Made by a program: the position numbers and the translations under genes
The notes under the pieces: generated by a model
The model's database searches: none
Seen by the model: the letters and a program-made list of their open reading frames with translations, nothing else
What the model was told of the DNA's origin: nothing
From: an uncultured Bacillota bacterium
GTDB taxonomy: Bacteria; Sysuimicrobiota; Sysuimicrobiia; Sysuimicrobiales; Segetimicrobiaceae
Assembly: GCA_963804645.1 (NCBI GenBank)
Contig: CAWDRG010000006.1
Location: forward strand, 32,001-96,000
Reading direction: 5' to 3'
DNA: 64,000 bases
Shown: positions 8,615-42,443 of the stretch, one piece after another
Layout: each line of letters opens with the position of its first letter
Position numbering within the stretch: the first letter of the stretch is position 1

Positions 8615-8946
8615 GCCAGCCACGGCCGTCGGGACACCCCTCGATGGCGATCGTTTGCAGCGTATCGGTGTCCGCTTCGGCGCGCACCGACACGTTCCCG
8701 ATTATATCAGGTGCCCGCGGGAGGCGGATTGACCGCGCGCCTCGACGGGCCCTTCGGAACCGGCTGCGCCGTGGGTGCGCGTTGAGGGCACCCGCGGCCG
8801 GCTGTGGGGTCATAACAGGTTGGATCAGTTGGATCAGTCAGCGATTTCGCAAAGGACCAGTAGCAAGTGACAGGCGCGCTCAATAGAATCAGCGGCGTTT
8901 CGTCAGATCGCCTGCCGCACGGCATTTTTGCATTTGCGGACGCGGC

Positions 8947-8975
8947 TTGCATTCCAACGAATCTTGTGCTATTAT
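8947..8975 (+). promoter_or_regulatory. IS-internal sigma70-type promoter for the small ORF
   Basis: TTGCAT-17 bp-TATTAT with TG extension; similar TTGCAT...TGCTA segment in copy 2 at 40012-40040. Confidence 0.55.
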
Positions 8976-8985
8976 ATTAAACAAG

Positions 8986-9375
8986 ATGACTCGAGGACGG
9001 CTGCGACTCGATTACAAGGCGCCGCAGGGCGAGGAGGCCGCGCGCCTGCGCCAGCGGAAGCGCGCCTTGGTCCAGCGGCAGTGTCACCTGCCCGAGACCC
9101 TCGACACCATGTTGCCCGGGTCCCTGACCTTGAGCCATGTGCGGTGCGGAAAACCGAACTGTCACTGTGCGACGGGCGACGGCCATCCCAACTGGACGCT
9201 CGGGTATATGCTCGACCGGAAGCCCCGCGTCCAGCACATCCCGCGCGCGTGGGCAGACGACATTCGGGCACGGGTGGACGCGGGGCGGGCATTTCAAGAT
9301 GCCGTGCGCGAGGTGTTGGCGACCAACGTGCAGTTGCTCGTCCTGGCGCGCAAGCAACGGCGGAAGGCCCCGTAG
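8986..9375 (+). CDS. IS accessory protein with CGKxxCHC motif (DUF6788-like)
   Basis: LPGSL...RCGKPNCHC..GDGHP.W.L; clear homolog at 40062-40451. Confidence 0.75.
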   Translation: MTRGRLRLDYKAPQGEEAARLRQRKRALVQRQCHLPETLDTMLPGSLTLSHVRCGKPNCHCATGDGHPNWTLGYMLDRKPRVQHIPRAWADDIRARVDAGRAFQDAVREVLATNVQLLVLARKQRRKAP

Positions 9376-9377
9376 CG

Positions 9378-10637
9378 GTGGGGCGGCACGAGATCGAGGC
9401 CTACGTCGAGAAAATCTTCGATTGGTCGGCGCTGCTGACCCGTCTGCCGGACGGGCGACGGCACCCGCAGCACTCGTGCCAGAAGGTCTTCGCCGCGGTG
9501 TTCTGGGGCGCGGTTGGGCGGATCCCGAGCTTCCATCAGTTGGAGTATGAGTGCAGAGCCGGGGGGCTGCGTCATCGCATTGGGCCGCTCAGTGAGGACA
9601 CGCTGCGCTACACCCTCGAGCGCGTGGCGCCTGAGGCAGTGTTCGCGCTGGGCTGCGAAGTCGCGCGACGGCTGAAGCGCAATGGGGTCCTGCGCACGGA
9701 TGCCGCGCAAGGCTTGATCGTGGCCGCAGTGGACGGGATCGAGCTTTGTCAGTCCTACGTCCGCTGCTGCGACAGGTGTCTGGAGCGGATGGTAGACCGC
9801 CTGGTCGATGGCGTGCAGCAGACGGCCGTGCAATATTATCACCGCATGGTGGCCGTCGTCATTGTGAGCACCGCGTTTCCGATTCCGCTGGGGATTCGCT
9901 TTCAGGCGCCGGGCGAAGGCGAAGTCCCGTGTGCGCATGCGCTGCTGGAGGAGCTCGTGGAGCGGCTGGGCCGGCGGTTCGTGGACGTGCTGGTGGGGGA
10001 TGCGCTCTATCTGGGCAAACCGTTCATCGACGCCATCGAAGCGCTCGGGCTCGATTGGGTGTGCAACATTAAAGACAATCAGGCCGAGTTGCTGGCGGAA
10101 CTGGAGCGCCGGGTGACGGGGGTGACGCCGGGCGAGGTGCGCACACCTGACGCCGCGACGCAGTGCTGGCATGTCCCCGATGTCTCATGGTTGGCGGGAG
10201 ACCGGTCCGTGCGCTGCCTCAAGGAGGTGCGGCAGGAGGCGCAGACGCGGCTGCGGGTCGAGGGCGAAGGGGGGCACCGGACGCGGCGCAAAACGGTGGT
10301 GTGGGAAGAGAGCATGAACCTGTACGCGAGCAACCTTGATGTGCTGGCGTGTTCCCCAACGGGGCTGGCGGCGCTGGGGCGCTCGCGGTGGCGCATTGAT
10401 ACTGAAGTCTTCCAGACGCTGACGAAAGAGTGCCAGCTCAAGCATCCGGCGGTGCACCAGCAGCACGATCAAGCCTTCATGGTGCTCACCATGATTCGCA
10501 TTCTGGCCTATACGCTGCTGCTGGTCTTCTTTCATCGCCAGGTGCTGAGTCACGCCCGCCACACGCCGCCGACTCTCTGCCAGGTTGCGACCCAAGTCGT
10601 CCCAGCGTTCGCCCAGGTGCACCCCGACTCGAGTTGA
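9378..10637 (+). CDS. DDE transposase (IS4/ISAs1-like RNase H fold)
   Basis: AAVDG, VGDALY, RSRWRIDTEVF catalytic-type motifs; lies within the IRs. Confidence 0.85.
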   Translation: MGRHEIEAYVEKIFDWSALLTRLPDGRRHPQHSCQKVFAAVFWGAVGRIPSFHQLEYECRAGGLRHRIGPLSEDTLRYTLERVAPEAVFALGCEVARRLKRNGVLRTDAAQGLIVAAVDGIELCQSYVRCCDRCLERMVDRLVDGVQQTAVQYYHRMVAVVIVSTAFPIPLGIRFQAPGEGEVPCAHALLEELVERLGRRFVDVLVGDALYLGKPFIDAIEALGLDWVCNIKDNQAELLAELERRVTGVTPGEVRTPDAATQCWHVPDVSWLAGDRSVRCLKEVRQEAQTRLRVEGEGGHRTRRKTVVWEESMNLYASNLDVLACSPTGLAALGRSRWRIDTEVFQTLTKECQLKHPAVHQQHDQAFMVLTMIRILAYTLLLVFFHRQVLSHARHTPPTLCQVATQVVPAFAQVHPDSS

Positions 10638-10850
10638 CCGGCAGCGCCGGGATGCCCATGGTCCGGAGTCGCGACTCGGACTCTTCGGTCCTCTCTCCGT
10701 CATCAGGTCCCACCGTTCCCGTTCGCTCACTCGTGCAGCTGCGAATCTACCGCAAGACTGTTCGATCGGCTTGTATGCCGCCCCGAGACCAGCAGGCGTC
10801 TGGCTTCCCCCTGTCCATTTGCGAAATCGCTGTTGGATCAGTGGAAGCGC

Positions 10851-10878
10851 TTGACATTGTGCAAGGATCGGGTATACT
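10851..10878 (+). promoter_or_regulatory. sigma70-type promoter
   Basis: TTGACA (10851-10856), 16 bp, TATACT (10873-10878). Confidence 0.75.
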
Positions 10879-10926
10879 GATGAAGACAGGATTCTGACCA
10901 GGCAAGTCCAATGGGGGACTGTCAAG

Positions 10927-38786: not shown

Positions 38787-39919
38787 GCGACGCGATCGGG
38801 CGGTTCGCGATCATCATCCACCCGCAGTCCGTCAGCGACTACACCAAGAAGTTTCCGTTCACGCGGCTCCTGCCGGCCGCGTTCGTCGAGCGCGCGTTCA
38901 CGATGGTCCCGCCGTTCGAGGCGTCGCACATCACCGGCATCGTGTCGGCGACCGGCGCCCGAGCCGAGGGGTGGTTCGTCGGACTGCCGTGGACGCCGCG
39001 CGTGTTGCTGGCGATGCCGCCCCAGGCGACGACCCGCCGCCTCGTGCAGGCCGGGCGGATCGCGGAGCGCCTCGGCGCGGGGATCGTCGGGTTGGCCGCG
39101 TTCACCAAGGTCGTGGGCGACCGGGGCGTCTCGGTCGCGCGGGAGCTCACGATCGGCGTGACCACGGGCAACAGCCTGACGGCGGCCACCGCGGTTGAGG
39201 GCGCCGCGCTCGCGGCGTCCCGGATGGGCGTGCCGATCGGCGCCGCACGGGTCGCCGTGGTCGGCGCCACGGGCTCGATCGGCGCCGCGTGCAGCCAGAT
39301 GCTCGCGCGGCAGGCCGGCGAACTCGTCCTGGTGGCGCGGAACCGCGAGCGCCTGGAGCGGCTCGCCGAGCGGCTCCGCGCCACCGCGGTCGGGCCCGTC
39401 TCGGTCACCTCCGACCTGCGCGCGGCGGTGAGGTCGGCCGACGTCGTGATCACCGTTAGCTCGGCGATCGACGTGCTGATCGAGCCGGAGGATCTGCGGC
39501 CCGGCACCGTCGTGTGCGACGTCGCGCGTCCGCGCAACGTCTCGCGCCTCGTCTACGAGCGGCGCCGGGACGTGCTCGTGATCGACGGCGGCGTGATCGA
39601 CGTGCCGGGCCCCGTCCAGTTCGGCTTGGACTTCGGGTTTCCGCCGGGGTCGTGCGAGGCGTGCATGGCCGAGACGATCCTGCTCGCGCTCGAGCACCGC
39701 TACGACGACTACACGGTCGGCGCGGACGTCGACCTCGCGAAAGTCGAGGAGATCCACGGGCTGATGCGCACGCACGGGTTTCGCCTCTCGGGGTTGCGCC
39801 GGTTCGAGCGGCGCATCTCCGACGACGAGGTCGAGGAGATTCGGCGCGCGGCGCGCGGCGCGCCGGCGCCGCCCGCGCGCGCCGCCGCGGTGCCACAGGA
39901 GTTTCGGAACCCGGGATAG
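38783..39919 (+). CDS. Rossmann-fold oxidoreductase (COG5322 / acyl-ACP reductase-like); last codons supplied by an IS
   Basis: TTGNSLT, VAVVGATGSIG, CDVARPRN, ACMAETILLALE. Confidence 0.8.
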   Translation: MSDAIGRFAIIIHPQSVSDYTKKFPFTRLLPAAFVERAFTMVPPFEASHITGIVSATGARAEGWFVGLPWTPRVLLAMPPQATTRRLVQAGRIAERLGAGIVGLAAFTKVVGDRGVSVARELTIGVTTGNSLTAATAVEGAALAASRMGVPIGAARVAVVGATGSIGAACSQMLARQAGELVLVARNRERLERLAERLRATAVGPVSVTSDLRAAVRSADVVITVSSAIDVLIEPEDLRPGTVVCDVARPRNVSRLVYERRRDVLVIDGGVIDVPGPVQFGLDFGFPPGSCEACMAETILLALEHRYDDYTVGADVDLAKVEEIHGLMRTHGFRLSGLRRFERRISDDEVEEIRRAARGAPAPPARAAAVPQEFRNPG

Positions 39920-40061
39920 CTGATCCACCGGGTCGCCCATAAAGAGGCCGATAAGGCGGCCGCTGCCAGCATCGTGGCAGGGGCCTCTATTTTCGCATTC
40001 GAACGGAGTACTTGCATTCACGAGTATCTTATGCTACTAATTACCATAGGATGAGGCGTCG

Positions 40062-40451
40062 ATGACAAAACCGACCCCGAAGTTGCGCGTGGACTTCACG
40101 GCGCCGCGCGGCCCGGTGGCGGCGCGGCTGCGGCAGCAGCAGCATGAGCTGTTGCGACGGTTTCGGTTGCCGGCGGAGTTGCTGGAGCAGTTGCCGGGAT
40201 CGTTGTCGTTGACTCATTTGCGGTGTGGGAAACCGACGTGCCACTGTGCGCGCGGTGAAGGACATCCGGCGTGGCATCTGACGTACACCGTCGGGGGGCG
40301 GAAACAGGTGCTGCACATTCCGACCGCGCTGGCGGAGGAGATCGGGCACCGGGTGGAGGCGGGGCATGCGGTGCAGGATGCGGTCCGCGACGTGCTGGCC
40401 GCTAACGCGCAGTTGTTGAAGTTGGCGCGTCAGCAGCAGCGGCGGCGATGA
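40062..40451 (+). CDS. IS accessory protein with CGKxxCHC motif (DUF6788-like)
   Basis: LPGSLSLTHLRCGKPTCHCARGEGHPAW; homolog of 8986-9375. Confidence 0.78.
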   Translation: MTKPTPKLRVDFTAPRGPVAARLRQQQHELLRRFRLPAELLEQLPGSLSLTHLRCGKPTCHCARGEGHPAWHLTYTVGGRKQVLHIPTALAEEIGHRVEAGHAVQDAVRDVLAANAQLLKLARQQQRRR

Positions 40452-41647
40452 GAGGGCCGACCCCGCGGCGTCTGTGGAAGTACGTCGTGCAGCGCTTACG
40501 CTTGGCCACCTACTTCGCGGCGCCTGGGGATGAGCGGCCCGCGCCGCAAATTCCGGCGCGGGCGATCTTGTGGGGGCTGGTGATCGGGCACATTCTGCGG
40601 GAAGACGCGTTTGCGGGGGTGGATGCCCTGGTCCGGGGCGCGGCCCGGGCGCTGGGCGTGGGCCGGCGGTTCAGTCACGATACGCTGGCATATGTGACCG
40701 CGCGGTTGGATCCGGGGCCGACGCGCGCGGCGTTGAGCGCGGTGGCACGCCGCGCGAAGCGGAATAAAGCCTTGGTGGGCAGTGGGTGGATTGGCCTCGC
40801 GGTGGATGGCACCGCGACCACCTGTCTCAGCAAGCCGGGGACCGACTGTCCGTACTGTCGACCGTTGCGCAAAGAGGATGGCACCCTGCTAGGGTATCGG
40901 CATGAGATGGCCGTGCTGAGCATCGTGAATGCGGGCGTGACGTTGCCGTGTGACCTGGAGCTCTACGGGCCGGGCGACAGTGAGTCGGCGGCGGGGCAGC
41001 GCGTGCTGCGGCGCGGGGTGGCGGCGTTGGGGCCGCGGTTCGCCGACTATGTCGTGGGCGACAGCAAATTCGCGACGGCACCCTTCCTGCATACGGCGGG
41101 GGACGTCGGCCTGCGGGTGGTGGCGCGCTTAAAGGACAATCTCCCGGAGCTCCATGCCGCGGCGCAGGCGCGGTTTGTGGGCCGCATGCCGACCGCGACG
41201 TTCACAGACGGTCGCGATCAGCTGGAGGTGTGGGATGCGAGCGATTTCGATCCGTGGGTGGGGCTGCGGTGGAAGACGGTACGCGTCCTGAAGTATCGGC
41301 AGACCAAGCCGAACGGCAAGATCATCGAAGCGTTCTGGTTGACCGATTGGCCGGTGAGTCTGGTGTCCAGTCACGCCTTGTACCGCATGGCCAAGAGCCG
41401 GTGGGAGATCGAGAATCAGATCTTCAATGTGGCGAAAACGTACCACGGATTGGAGCACGTCTGCCACCATCAAGGCACGAGCCTTGTGGCGAGTTGGCTC
41501 ATTACGCTGCTGGCGATCGCCATCGAAACGCTCTACCGTCTCCGCTTCTTGCATCGCGGCTCGCATCCCGTGCTCGCGGCGATCGACCTCTGCCGGCGCC
41601 TGCGGATGCAGCTCGCGTGCCGTCCCGCTAGCGCGGCCCCCGGCTAA
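40448..41647 (+). CDS. DDE transposase (IS4/ISAs1-like)
   Basis: LAVDG, VGDSKF, KSRWEIENQIFN; ATGA coupling to the accessory ORF. Confidence 0.87.
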   Translation: MRGPTPRRLWKYVVQRLRLATYFAAPGDERPAPQIPARAILWGLVIGHILREDAFAGVDALVRGAARALGVGRRFSHDTLAYVTARLDPGPTRAALSAVARRAKRNKALVGSGWIGLAVDGTATTCLSKPGTDCPYCRPLRKEDGTLLGYRHEMAVLSIVNAGVTLPCDLELYGPGDSESAAGQRVLRRGVAALGPRFADYVVGDSKFATAPFLHTAGDVGLRVVARLKDNLPELHAAAQARFVGRMPTATFTDGRDQLEVWDASDFDPWVGLRWKTVRVLKYRQTKPNGKIIEAFWLTDWPVSLVSSHALYRMAKSRWEIENQIFNVAKTYHGLEHVCHHQGTSLVASWLITLLAIAIETLYRLRFLHRGSHPVLAAIDLCRRLRMQLACRPASAAPG

Positions 41648-41853
41648 CCCCCAGGCAGCGTGTCGAGGACGCGACCTCTGGCTTGCGGCCTCTCGAAGCC
41701 GCCGGCCTCGTCTCCCTCCACCCCCCAACAGCCCTTGCGTCGATGCCGGTCGGATTGATTCGGGACGCAAACACGCGCTCGGGCCTCTATTTTCGCCTCT
41801 CTTGCGTCCCCCCCAACGCAGGTTGCGAAATTGCTGGCGGTGCCAGAGCGCCT

Positions 41854-41882
41854 TTGACAACCGTGGACCTCTCTTGTATACT
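41854..41882 (+). promoter_or_regulatory. greA sigma70-type promoter
   Basis: TTGACA (41854-41859), 17 bp, TATACT (41877-41882). Confidence 0.85.
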
Positions 41883-41969
41883 ACCTGAGAGTTCGAGGCT
41901 GAGGGCGGCTCCTCAGTCTCGTCTCCTGTTTCTATCGACATTTTCAATCCCCCAGGTGAGTTGACCGGT

Positions 41970-42443
41970 ATGGACGAGAAGGAAACGTTCCTGACGCCCG
42001 AAGGCCTGCGCAAGCTCGAAGAGGAACTGGACCACCTCAAGGCGGTCAAGCGGAAGGAAGTCGCCGAGCGCATCAAGCAGGCGAAAGACTTCGGCGACCT
42101 GTCGGAGAACTCGGAGTACGAGGATGCCAAGAATGAGCAGGCGTTTGTCGAGGGGCGGATTCTGACCCTCGAGGCGATGCTGCGCAGCGTGCGGGTGATC
42201 GACAACCACGACGCCCGCTCGGACGTCGTGACGATCGGCAGCACGGTCCGGGTGACCGACGAGACCGGCGAGGATGTCACCTACACGATCGTCGGGTCGG
42301 CCGAGGCGGACCCGGTCAACGACAAGATCAGCAACGAGTCTCCGGTCGGCCGGGCGCTGCTCGGCAAACGGAAGGGACAGGCCGTCACCGTGCAGGTGCC
42401 GGCGGGCACCATCCGGTACACCGTCAAGGCGATTAAGCGGTAG
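41970..42443 (+). CDS. greA: Transcription elongation factor GreA
   Basis: [27 protein letters not shown]. Confidence 0.97.

Follow-up and report, generated by a model that had tools for sequence, protein, structure and literature searches.

A family of insertion sequences carrying a DUF6788 gene inserts in one orientation at a fixed point upstream of primary-sigma promoters

Introduction

How do two diverged insertion sequences (ISs) come to lie in the same orientation and at the same distance in front of two promoters? The question is raised by a stretch of 64,000 nucleotides from an uncultured Bacillota bacterium (GTDB phylum Sysuimicrobiota; GenBank assembly GCA_963804645.1, contig CAWDRG010000006.1, positions 32,001 to 96,000), which is called the window hereafter. 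The window contains two complete ISs, copy 1 and copy 2, each combining a gene of the DUF6788 family with a transposase gene and each bordered by a target-site duplication (TSD). A first-pass annotation, made from the sequence alone, had pointed out that in both cases the right inverted repeat (IR) is followed by the TSD, 8 bp, TTGACA, a spacing of 16 or 17 bp, and TATACT. Both arrangements are present, and an independent consensus scan recovered the same two promoters at the same coordinates; shuffled sequences yielded 0.2–0.3 per region. Both elements are co-directional with the promoter. Their transposases are 27–28% identical, and their DUF6788 proteins 56%. The low identity of the transposases indicates that copy 1 (lineage T1) and copy 2 (lineage T2) belong to old, separate lineages and that the insertions are independent events, as had been supposed.

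The observation was confirmed and now covers about 140 independent sites. The family is widespread, and lands almost always in one orientation at the same spot upstream of a promoter. Its targets are primary-sigma (sigma-A/sigma-70) promoters. The right end of the element, and the direction of its own genes, point toward the promoter. The promoter-side strand-transfer point is 8 bp upstream of the −35 hexamer, and the other cut is 9 bp (T2 and a third lineage, T3) or 10 bp (T1) further upstream, which leaves 17 or 18 bp between the end of the right IR and the −35. Neither the core promoter nor the gene is disrupted, and no particular bases are required in the TSD or the spacer.

Results

Occupied promoters in the genome of the window

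The 22 contigs of the genome were searched with tblastn for copies of the element. T1 is present in five copies, T2 in four and T3 in seven. The transposase of T3 is 25–30% identical to those of T1 and T2; this lineage has the ends CAGCCCTGAAG... and ...CCTCACCGTTG, and a TSD of 9 bp. One T2 copy, on contig C22, is truncated, lacks a right end, and was left out of the count. The 15 copies with a right end, which represent all three lineages, are found at 13 promoters. A TAnnnT motif is present 16–18 bp after the hexamer starting 8 bp from the TSD at all 13 promoters, against a genome background of 0.56%. The −35 hexamer starts with TTG in 10 of the 13. Poor −35 hexamers (GTGCTT, GTGTGA and TGTATC, with 2–3 matches out of six) are paired with −10 hexamers having 3–6 matches. 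At two of the 13 promoters, which belong to a lexA-like and a tRNA-like gene, an IS256-family element has inserted later, and the site had to be read across it.

The targeted promoters precede greA, open reading frames (ORFs) resembling rimP, rplJ, hpt and lexA, a tRNA-Met-like gene, and a thiamine pyrophosphate (TPP) riboswitch. Only greA and the TPP riboswitch were matched to a family library, the others being named by eye from their translations. The riboswitch begins directly 3' of its promoter; it is the only Rfam family found at threshold downstream of the targeted promoters.

Some promoters have been hit repeatedly. At the TPP promoter, a decayed T2 copy is followed by a decayed T1 copy at the same target, with an ambiguity of 1 bp in the T2 offset. 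Two T3 copies (T3b and T3a) and the IS256-family element stand in a row at the lexA promoter, and tandem stacks were also found elsewhere (loci L024 and L134). Such re-use is expected if the position of insertion is measured from the promoter.

Two further observations were made on T1 sequences of this genome. On contig C10 (G000:C10), about 360 bases past the right end of the T1 copy (T1_C10, 194702), the targeted promoter is followed by a long hairpin and by an ORF whose translation, judged by eye, resembles an IS605-type OrfB/TnpB. An isolated sequence similar to the right end of T1 (...CGCGAAATCGCTG) stands on the minus strand at G000:C9:54972; its flank is not promoter-like, and the sequence may be either a decayed end or a match by chance.

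The same position in other organisms

For T1, one genome per species was scanned with the transposase alignment, which gave 80 loci with 41–67% identity to T1. The hosts are mostly Acidobacteriota, represented by metagenome-assembled genomes, with a few labelled Firmicutes, Armatimonadota and others. The right end was located by its terminal 14 bases in 62 of the 80 loci, the 18 misses corresponding to contig ends or divergent ends, and all 62 flanks are distinct. For T2, a metagenome scan also gave 80 loci; the right end was located in 64, yielding 63 unique flanks.

A logo of the sequence beyond the right IR had been proposed as a check, with the −35 expected 17–18 bp from the IR. This is what was obtained: the −35 begins at +19 where the TSD is 10 bp, and at +18 where it is 9 bp. 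The T1-like logo is flat over the 10-bp TSD and the 8-bp spacer, after which TTGaCa emerges at +19 to +24 and TAanAT at +42 to +47. At +19 to +21, T, T and G are found in 50, 44 and 48 of the 62 flanks; the exact TTG is at +19 in 36 flanks, and TAnnnT at +41 to +43 in 43. In the 63 T2-like flanks the corresponding bases occur at +18 to +20 (T in 53, T in 45, G in 50), with the exact TTG at +18 in 35 flanks and TAnnnT at +40 to +42 in 50. Where both ends of the element are available, the TSD is 10 bp in 32 of 33 T1-like loci, the exception being L046 with 9 bp; it is 9 bp in all 11 T2-like loci. The logos are thus shifted by the one base by which the TSDs differ, which means that the cut next to the promoter stays in place and it is the distant one that shifts. 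The constant offset of 8 bp, which had been noticed in the window despite TSDs of 10 and 9 bp, is therefore also found in the relatives.

When the best-scoring promoter was sought freely over the first 40 bases, with only flanks reaching at least 8 out of 12 counted, its position peaked at +19 in the T1-like set (33.8 of 45 scored flanks) and at +18 in the T2-like set (31.2 of 40 scored flanks). As controls, mirrored left flanks contained TTG in 2 of 33 cases and the −10 in none of 33, and 371,288 background positions of the same loci satisfied the TTG and −10 rules in 1.49% and 1.35% of cases. For the 62 T1-like flanks, binomial probabilities of about 2e-49 (TTG) and 1e-65 were obtained. The T3 lineage is present in 2 of 60 related genomes; in the T3-like copies of a related genome, both right ends (n = 2) obey the rule. 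A tblastn search of a plasmid collection with the T1 transposase gave no match.

The AGCGC shared by the two window spacers had been put forward as part of a DNA-level target motif. This idea was abandoned, as AGCGC is found in the spacer of one of the 62 T1-like and one of the 63 T2-like flanks, and neither the TSD nor the 8-bp spacer has a conserved column in either set; the rest of the first-pass interpretation was right. An A/T-rich target resembling an UP element was likewise ruled out, the TSD and spacer being 60–67% G+C.

Recent mobility

In a DNA sequencing run of a peat metagenome (X1), a contig of 177 bases with three base differences joins position 39886 of the window to position 41837. 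It skips 39887–41836, that is 1950 bp, the sum of the 1941-bp IS and one 9-bp TSD. A close strain therefore has an empty greA promoter with a single copy of the duplicated sequence. A transposase 100% identical was found elsewhere, at the rimP-like promoter of the same genome and at two promoter-like sites on metagenome contigs. Sequence comparison thus indicates that the mobility of the family is real and recent, as for a live element. Some run contigs pass through the IS but have a foreign left flank (loose end at 39896); they were discounted as joins made in assembly between identical IS copies. A claim of expression was also rejected, since RNA run X17 provided too little, a single contig identical to 41230–41481.

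The kind of element

Judged from its sequences, the family is an unnamed one of ISs of about 1.9–2.0 kb, which encode a small DUF6788 zinc-knuckle protein and a predicted Tn5/IS4-like DDE transposase. Both window elements consist of two genes, the DUF6788 gene (orfA) overlapping or abutting the downstream DDE_Tnp_1 transposase gene.

The transposases fall short of the curated IS families of NCBIfam. With the IS4 profile (NF033592, cut-off 115) the T1 transposase scores 50.3 bits and that of T2 21.9 bits; scores of 31 and 29.7 bits were obtained in the family with the IS701 profile (NF033540, cut-off 150). The T3 transposase is weaker still, with 29–30 bits against cut-offs of 115–152, and the scores of the family are also far below the curated cut-offs of IS1634 and IS1380. 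No match to Transposase_mut, ISLre2, ISKra4 or IS256 was found in Pfam and NCBIfam at an E-value of 0.01 or better, and when the transposase alignment was run as a profile against the sequences in the PDB, none matched at an E-value of 1 or better. The structural model of the T2 transposase (predicted local distance difference test, pLDDT, 85) was compared with known structures using Foldseek. The best match was the Tn5 transposase (1muh_A, E 3.7e-11, TMq 0.56, 391 columns), followed by piggyBac; the IS256-type ISCth4 came at rank 25 as a marginal match (E 6.8e-3, TMq 0.36). The model has a helical N-terminal region that could bind DNA. The protein collection contains more than 3,000 relatives with E-values of 1e-10 or better, whose only names are 'transposase' and 'hypothetical protein'.

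The orfA product of T3 matches DUF6788 (PF20586, cut-off 27.2) with 64.9 bits, above the gathering score like those of T1 and T2. Residues C55, C60, C62 and H68 are invariant in 41 sequences and form a knuckle of the type C-x4-C-x-C-x5-H. The model (pLDDT 92) consists of two short helices, a three-stranded sheet with the knuckle, and a 40-residue C-terminal helix. No match to this fold was found in the PDB with Foldseek at an E-value of 0.001 or better, and a wide search with VIA-align returned only single long-helix matches (Z about 5, residues 86–129), which give no fold assignment. No paper using the name DUF6788 was found in a literature search. A DUF6788 gene is also found in the same genome 5' of a frameshifted IS1380-family transposase gene (NF033539, 284.9 bits; locus L014, G000:C9:199500-203200, orfA 760-1077). 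That IS1380-family element is a single copy with insecure ends, and there is no obvious promoter past its probable right end.

Features of the window

The positions of the features are given in Table 1. The range given in the first-pass annotation for copy 2 and its promoter starts at 39887; that base is the first of the left TSD, and the IS itself starts nine bases further on. Next to the left TSD of copy 1 there is an additional tandem copy of the target, which is possibly the footprint of an earlier insertion with a 9-bp TSD, since excised, at the same promoter.

Between the promoter and the start of greA, the leader contains a hairpin of 12 pairs followed by a T-rich tail (41894–41921), a possible attenuator. 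The promoter next to copy 1 is followed by about 90 bases (10879–10970) ending with a hairpin and a T-run, and then by a DUF4386 gene (11087–11779). The segment 10879–10970 is a possible small RNA or leader; an Rfam scan of it found no family at threshold. Elsewhere in the window, a 23S ribosomal RNA match extends over 4011 bases (18313–22323) and includes a match to a group I intron at 20365–20613 (RF00028, 68.5 bits).

Table 1. Positions of the elements, their target sites and associated features. Window coordinates unless a contig or locus is named; IRL and IRR, left and right IR.
Feature	Position	Strand	Basis or detail
Additional 9-bp tandem target copy (TTGGATCAG), left of copy 1	8820..8828	no strand	read from sequence
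Left TSD of copy 1 (TTGGATCAGT)	8829..8838	no strand	read from sequence
Copy 1, lineage T1, complete IS, 1994 bp	8839..10832	+	IRL CAGCGATTTCGCAAA; IRR terminus ...TTTGCGAAATCGCTG
Copy 1 orfA, DUF6788, 129 aa, CCCH zinc-knuckle motif	8986..9375	+	Pfam PF20586 56.4 bits, cut-off 27.2; alignments
Copy 1 DDE transposase, 419 aa	9378..10637	+	Pfam DDE_Tnp_1 (PF01609) 40 bits, cut-off 23
Right TSD of copy 1, 10 bp (TTGGATCAGT)	10833..10842	no strand	read from sequence
Copy 1 spacer, TSD to −35, 8 bp (GGAAGCGC)	10843..10850	no strand	read from sequence
Host promoter at copy 1, TTGACA-16-TATACT	10851..10878	+	consensus scan 11/12; −35 10851-10856, −10 10873-10878
Left TSD of copy 2 (GCGGTGCCA)	39887..39895	no strand	single copy at empty site, run X1
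Copy 2, lineage T2, complete IS, 1941 bp	39896..41836	+	IRL CAGGAGTTTCGGAA; IRR terminus ...TTGCGAAATTGCTG
Probable promoter of copy 2 itself, TTGCAT-17-TACTAA, 5' of orfA	40012..40040	+	by eye; below consensus-scan threshold; inferred
Copy 2 orfA, DUF6788, 129 aa	40062..40451	+	Pfam PF20586 54.4 bits; model pLDDT 92
Copy 2 DDE transposase, 399 aa, Tn5-like fold (model)	40448..41647	+	DDE_Tnp_1 26.4 bits, cut-off 23; model pLDDT 85
Right TSD of copy 2, 9 bp (GCGGTGCCA)	41837..41845	no strand	read from sequence
Copy 2 spacer, TSD to −35, 8 bp (GAGCGCCT)	41846..41853	no strand	read from sequence
greA promoter, TTGACA-17-TATACT	41854..41882	+	consensus scan 11/12; −35 41854-41859, −10 41877-41882
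greA, gene behind the targeted promoter	41961..42443	+	Pfam GreA_GreB_N, GreA_GreB
IS256-family copies in the same genome	C13:54999-56295, C15:175231-176528, C2:218036-219324, C4:98502-99795, C17:490839-492132, C1:148172-151149		gene in L010 4490-5689

Comparison with known systems

Promoter targeting has been reported for TnGBS, the ISLre2 family and 13 elements of the ISKra4 group, all of them Mutator-like (Guerillot et al. 2014, PMC3942029). These elements are described there as inserting upstream of sigma-A promoters, at 15–17 bp (peak 16) from the −35, with repeats of 8–9 bp and the right IR adjoining the promoter. Its authors propose a contact with the polymerase initiation complex, by analogy with Ty3, and tie a transposase signature between domains N1 and N2 to promoter targeting; the IS256 family as a whole is reported there to show no positional enrichment.

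Measured against these published values, the DUF6788 family shares the fixed distance upstream of a sigma-A −35, which is here 17–18 bp, and the orientation with the right IR toward the promoter. Since the TSD is 8–9 bp in the Mutator-like elements and 9–10 bp here, the promoter-side cut is 7–8 bp from the −35 in both groups. The mechanism proposed below, a contact with the polymerase initiation complex, is also the same. The differences lie in the transposase, which is of the DDE_Tnp_1 type with a predicted Tn5-like fold, in the separate DUF6788 gene 5' of it, and in the hosts, which are for the most part Acidobacteriota of soil and peat together with other uncultured bacteria, as opposed to the Firmicutes of the published elements. 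The DUF6788 family works like the TnGBS/ISLre2/ISKra4 group but is not a member of it, as its transposase is not of the Mutator-like (p-MULT) type.

With the IS4 family, represented by the Tn5/IS50 type (1MUH), the DDE_Tnp_1 domain is held in common, and the structural match over about 390 columns is the best that was found, although the profile scores are far below the cut-offs of IS4 and of the other curated families named above. IS4-family elements usually have a TSD of about 9–12 bp, a range that includes the 9–10 bp found here. The target consensus of Tn5 and Tn10 is weak. Unlike the Tn5/IS50 type, the DUF6788 family has two genes and is strictly promoter-targeting and oriented.

The yeast element Ty3 integrates at the start sites of RNA polymerase III through TFIIIB, and is cited as the analogy in PMC3942029. 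In Ty3 a bound initiation complex serves as a landmark precise to the base pair, as it would for the DUF6788 family. Ty3 differs in being a eukaryotic retroelement with an integrase and in depending on another polymerase, and no homology is implied.

A third case was met in the genome of the window itself. The IS256-family element with GGTAGTGT ends (NF033543, 302.9 bits; PF00872, 284.1 bits) has one end 15–16 bp before a −35 in six of the nine copies with both ends, in either orientation. The TSD of 8–9 bp is followed by 7 bp up to the −35, and a −10 reading TATAAT or TATACT is at the right distance. Like the DUF6788 family, it occupies the lexA and tRNA promoters, and a decayed copy on contig C2 adjoins the T2/T1 stack at the TPP promoter. 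It differs from the DUF6788 family by a Mutator-type transposase, a single gene, and insertion in either orientation. The GGTAGTGT-ended element may be a promoter-targeting lineage inside IS256.

How the insertion point may be set

If the −35 hexamer is numbered −35 to −30, the spacer corresponds to −43 to −36 and the TSD to about −53 to −44. The upstream edge of the polymerase footprint is located there, and the C-terminal domains of the alpha subunits adjoin region 4 of sigma. The landmark would be a promoter occupied by the RNA polymerase holoenzyme, not a DNA word. The transposition complex would dock next to region 4 of sigma and the C-terminal domains of alpha, or else would exploit a DNA distortion made there by the polymerase. 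The contact could be made by either the transposase or the DUF6788 protein, and the orientation would be set by the asymmetry of the docking. RNA-polymerase-guided insertion next to promoters is considered to be the best explanation of the data, with a rough probability of 0.65 for this inferred mechanism.

The main argument for a polymerase landmark is that the sites are whole promoters rather than occurrences of TTG. A correctly spaced −10 is found in 27 of the 36 insertion sites with TTG, compared with 1.4% after background TTG, and is kept in 16 of the 26 sites without TTG. The fact that three unrelated types of transposase cut 7–8 bp from the −35 also fits a landmark imposed by the host.

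The proteins of the element might instead recognize the DNA of the promoter themselves, above all the TTG of the −35, with no need for RNA polymerase; a −10 would then show up only because good −35 hexamers are usually parts of real promoters. TTG is indeed the most conserved and most sharply placed signal in both sets of flanks, its first T more so than the whole word; the offset is counted from the −35, while the −10 floats by 1–2 bp; and the predicted helical N-terminal region of the transposase could provide the DNA binding. The frequencies of the −10 just given speak against this possibility whether or not TTG is present, as do the three promoters of the genome that have only 2–3 of six matches in the −35 and 3–6 of six in the −10. 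Moreover, targeting of TTG alone should have left insertions at neutral intergenic TTG sites that lack a −10. Direct reading is therefore regarded as improbable, while being the strongest competitor.

Alternatively, insertion could be random or regionally biased, selection having kept the harmless or beneficial copies upstream of promoters. All the sites seen are indeed those of surviving genomes, and it is plausible that an element lying upstream of an intact core promoter does no harm. Harmlessness can account neither for a precision of a single base (the peaks at +19 and +18) nor for the strict orientation (no −10 in the 33 left flanks); many other intergenic positions would be equally harmless, and the same rule holds in three lineages and several phyla. 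This explanation is very unlikely. That promoters merely happened to be near the ends of the two ISs of the window, conceivable while there were just two cases, is refuted by the 13 promoters out of 13 in the genome and by the binomial probabilities of the T1-like flanks, and can be dismissed.

Several points weigh against polymerase-guided insertion. About one fifth to one quarter of the flanks have no clear promoter at the offset; tandem insertions (L024 and L134) and a mis-called end (L080), all kept in the flank counts, explain part, though not all, of these exceptions. Direct reading of the −35 by a protein of the element gains some room from the strength of the TTG signal. Genome sites are the survivors of selection and not the raw insertion spectrum. 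The occurrence of DUF6788 beside an IS1380-family transposase suggests that this protein may not be the targeting factor. Finally, the docking is a proposal drawn from flank sequences. A prediction of complexes of the transposase or DUF6788 with residues 296–382 of sigma-A, run without controls, scored 0.01 against a mark of 0.32 and carries no weight either way.

Discussion

Promoter targeting has already been published for Mutator-type elements; the apparent novelty lies in the present family and in the fact that it has converged on the same arrangement. Literature searches, with ISfinder, TnPedia and subscription papers outside their scope, found no report of promoter targeting for the DUF6788 family or for other non-Mutator IS families.

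A more far-reaching proposal can be made tentatively, although the odds are against it in this full form. A Tn5-like transposase with a DUF6788 adaptor would have independently evolved the use of the holoenzyme as a docking landmark precise to the base pair, with the same cut position as Mutator-type elements. This position would then mark a feature of the initiation complex that any transpososome can exploit.

Landing upstream of promoters is not the quirk of one group, having been reached by unrelated transposase superfamilies, and this convergence strengthens the idea that the polymerase–promoter complex is the landmark. The abundant DUF6788 family offers a second system for a question open since TnGBS, namely what the transposase touches, and its separate small protein, DUF6788, lends itself to deletion or exchange. 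In uncultured Acidobacteriota and other soil bacteria, whose promoters have hardly been mapped, the right ends of the elements also mark where real promoters lie. As the insertion at −44 severs the promoter from upstream activator sites, it may rewire the regulation of a gene while sparing the gene itself.

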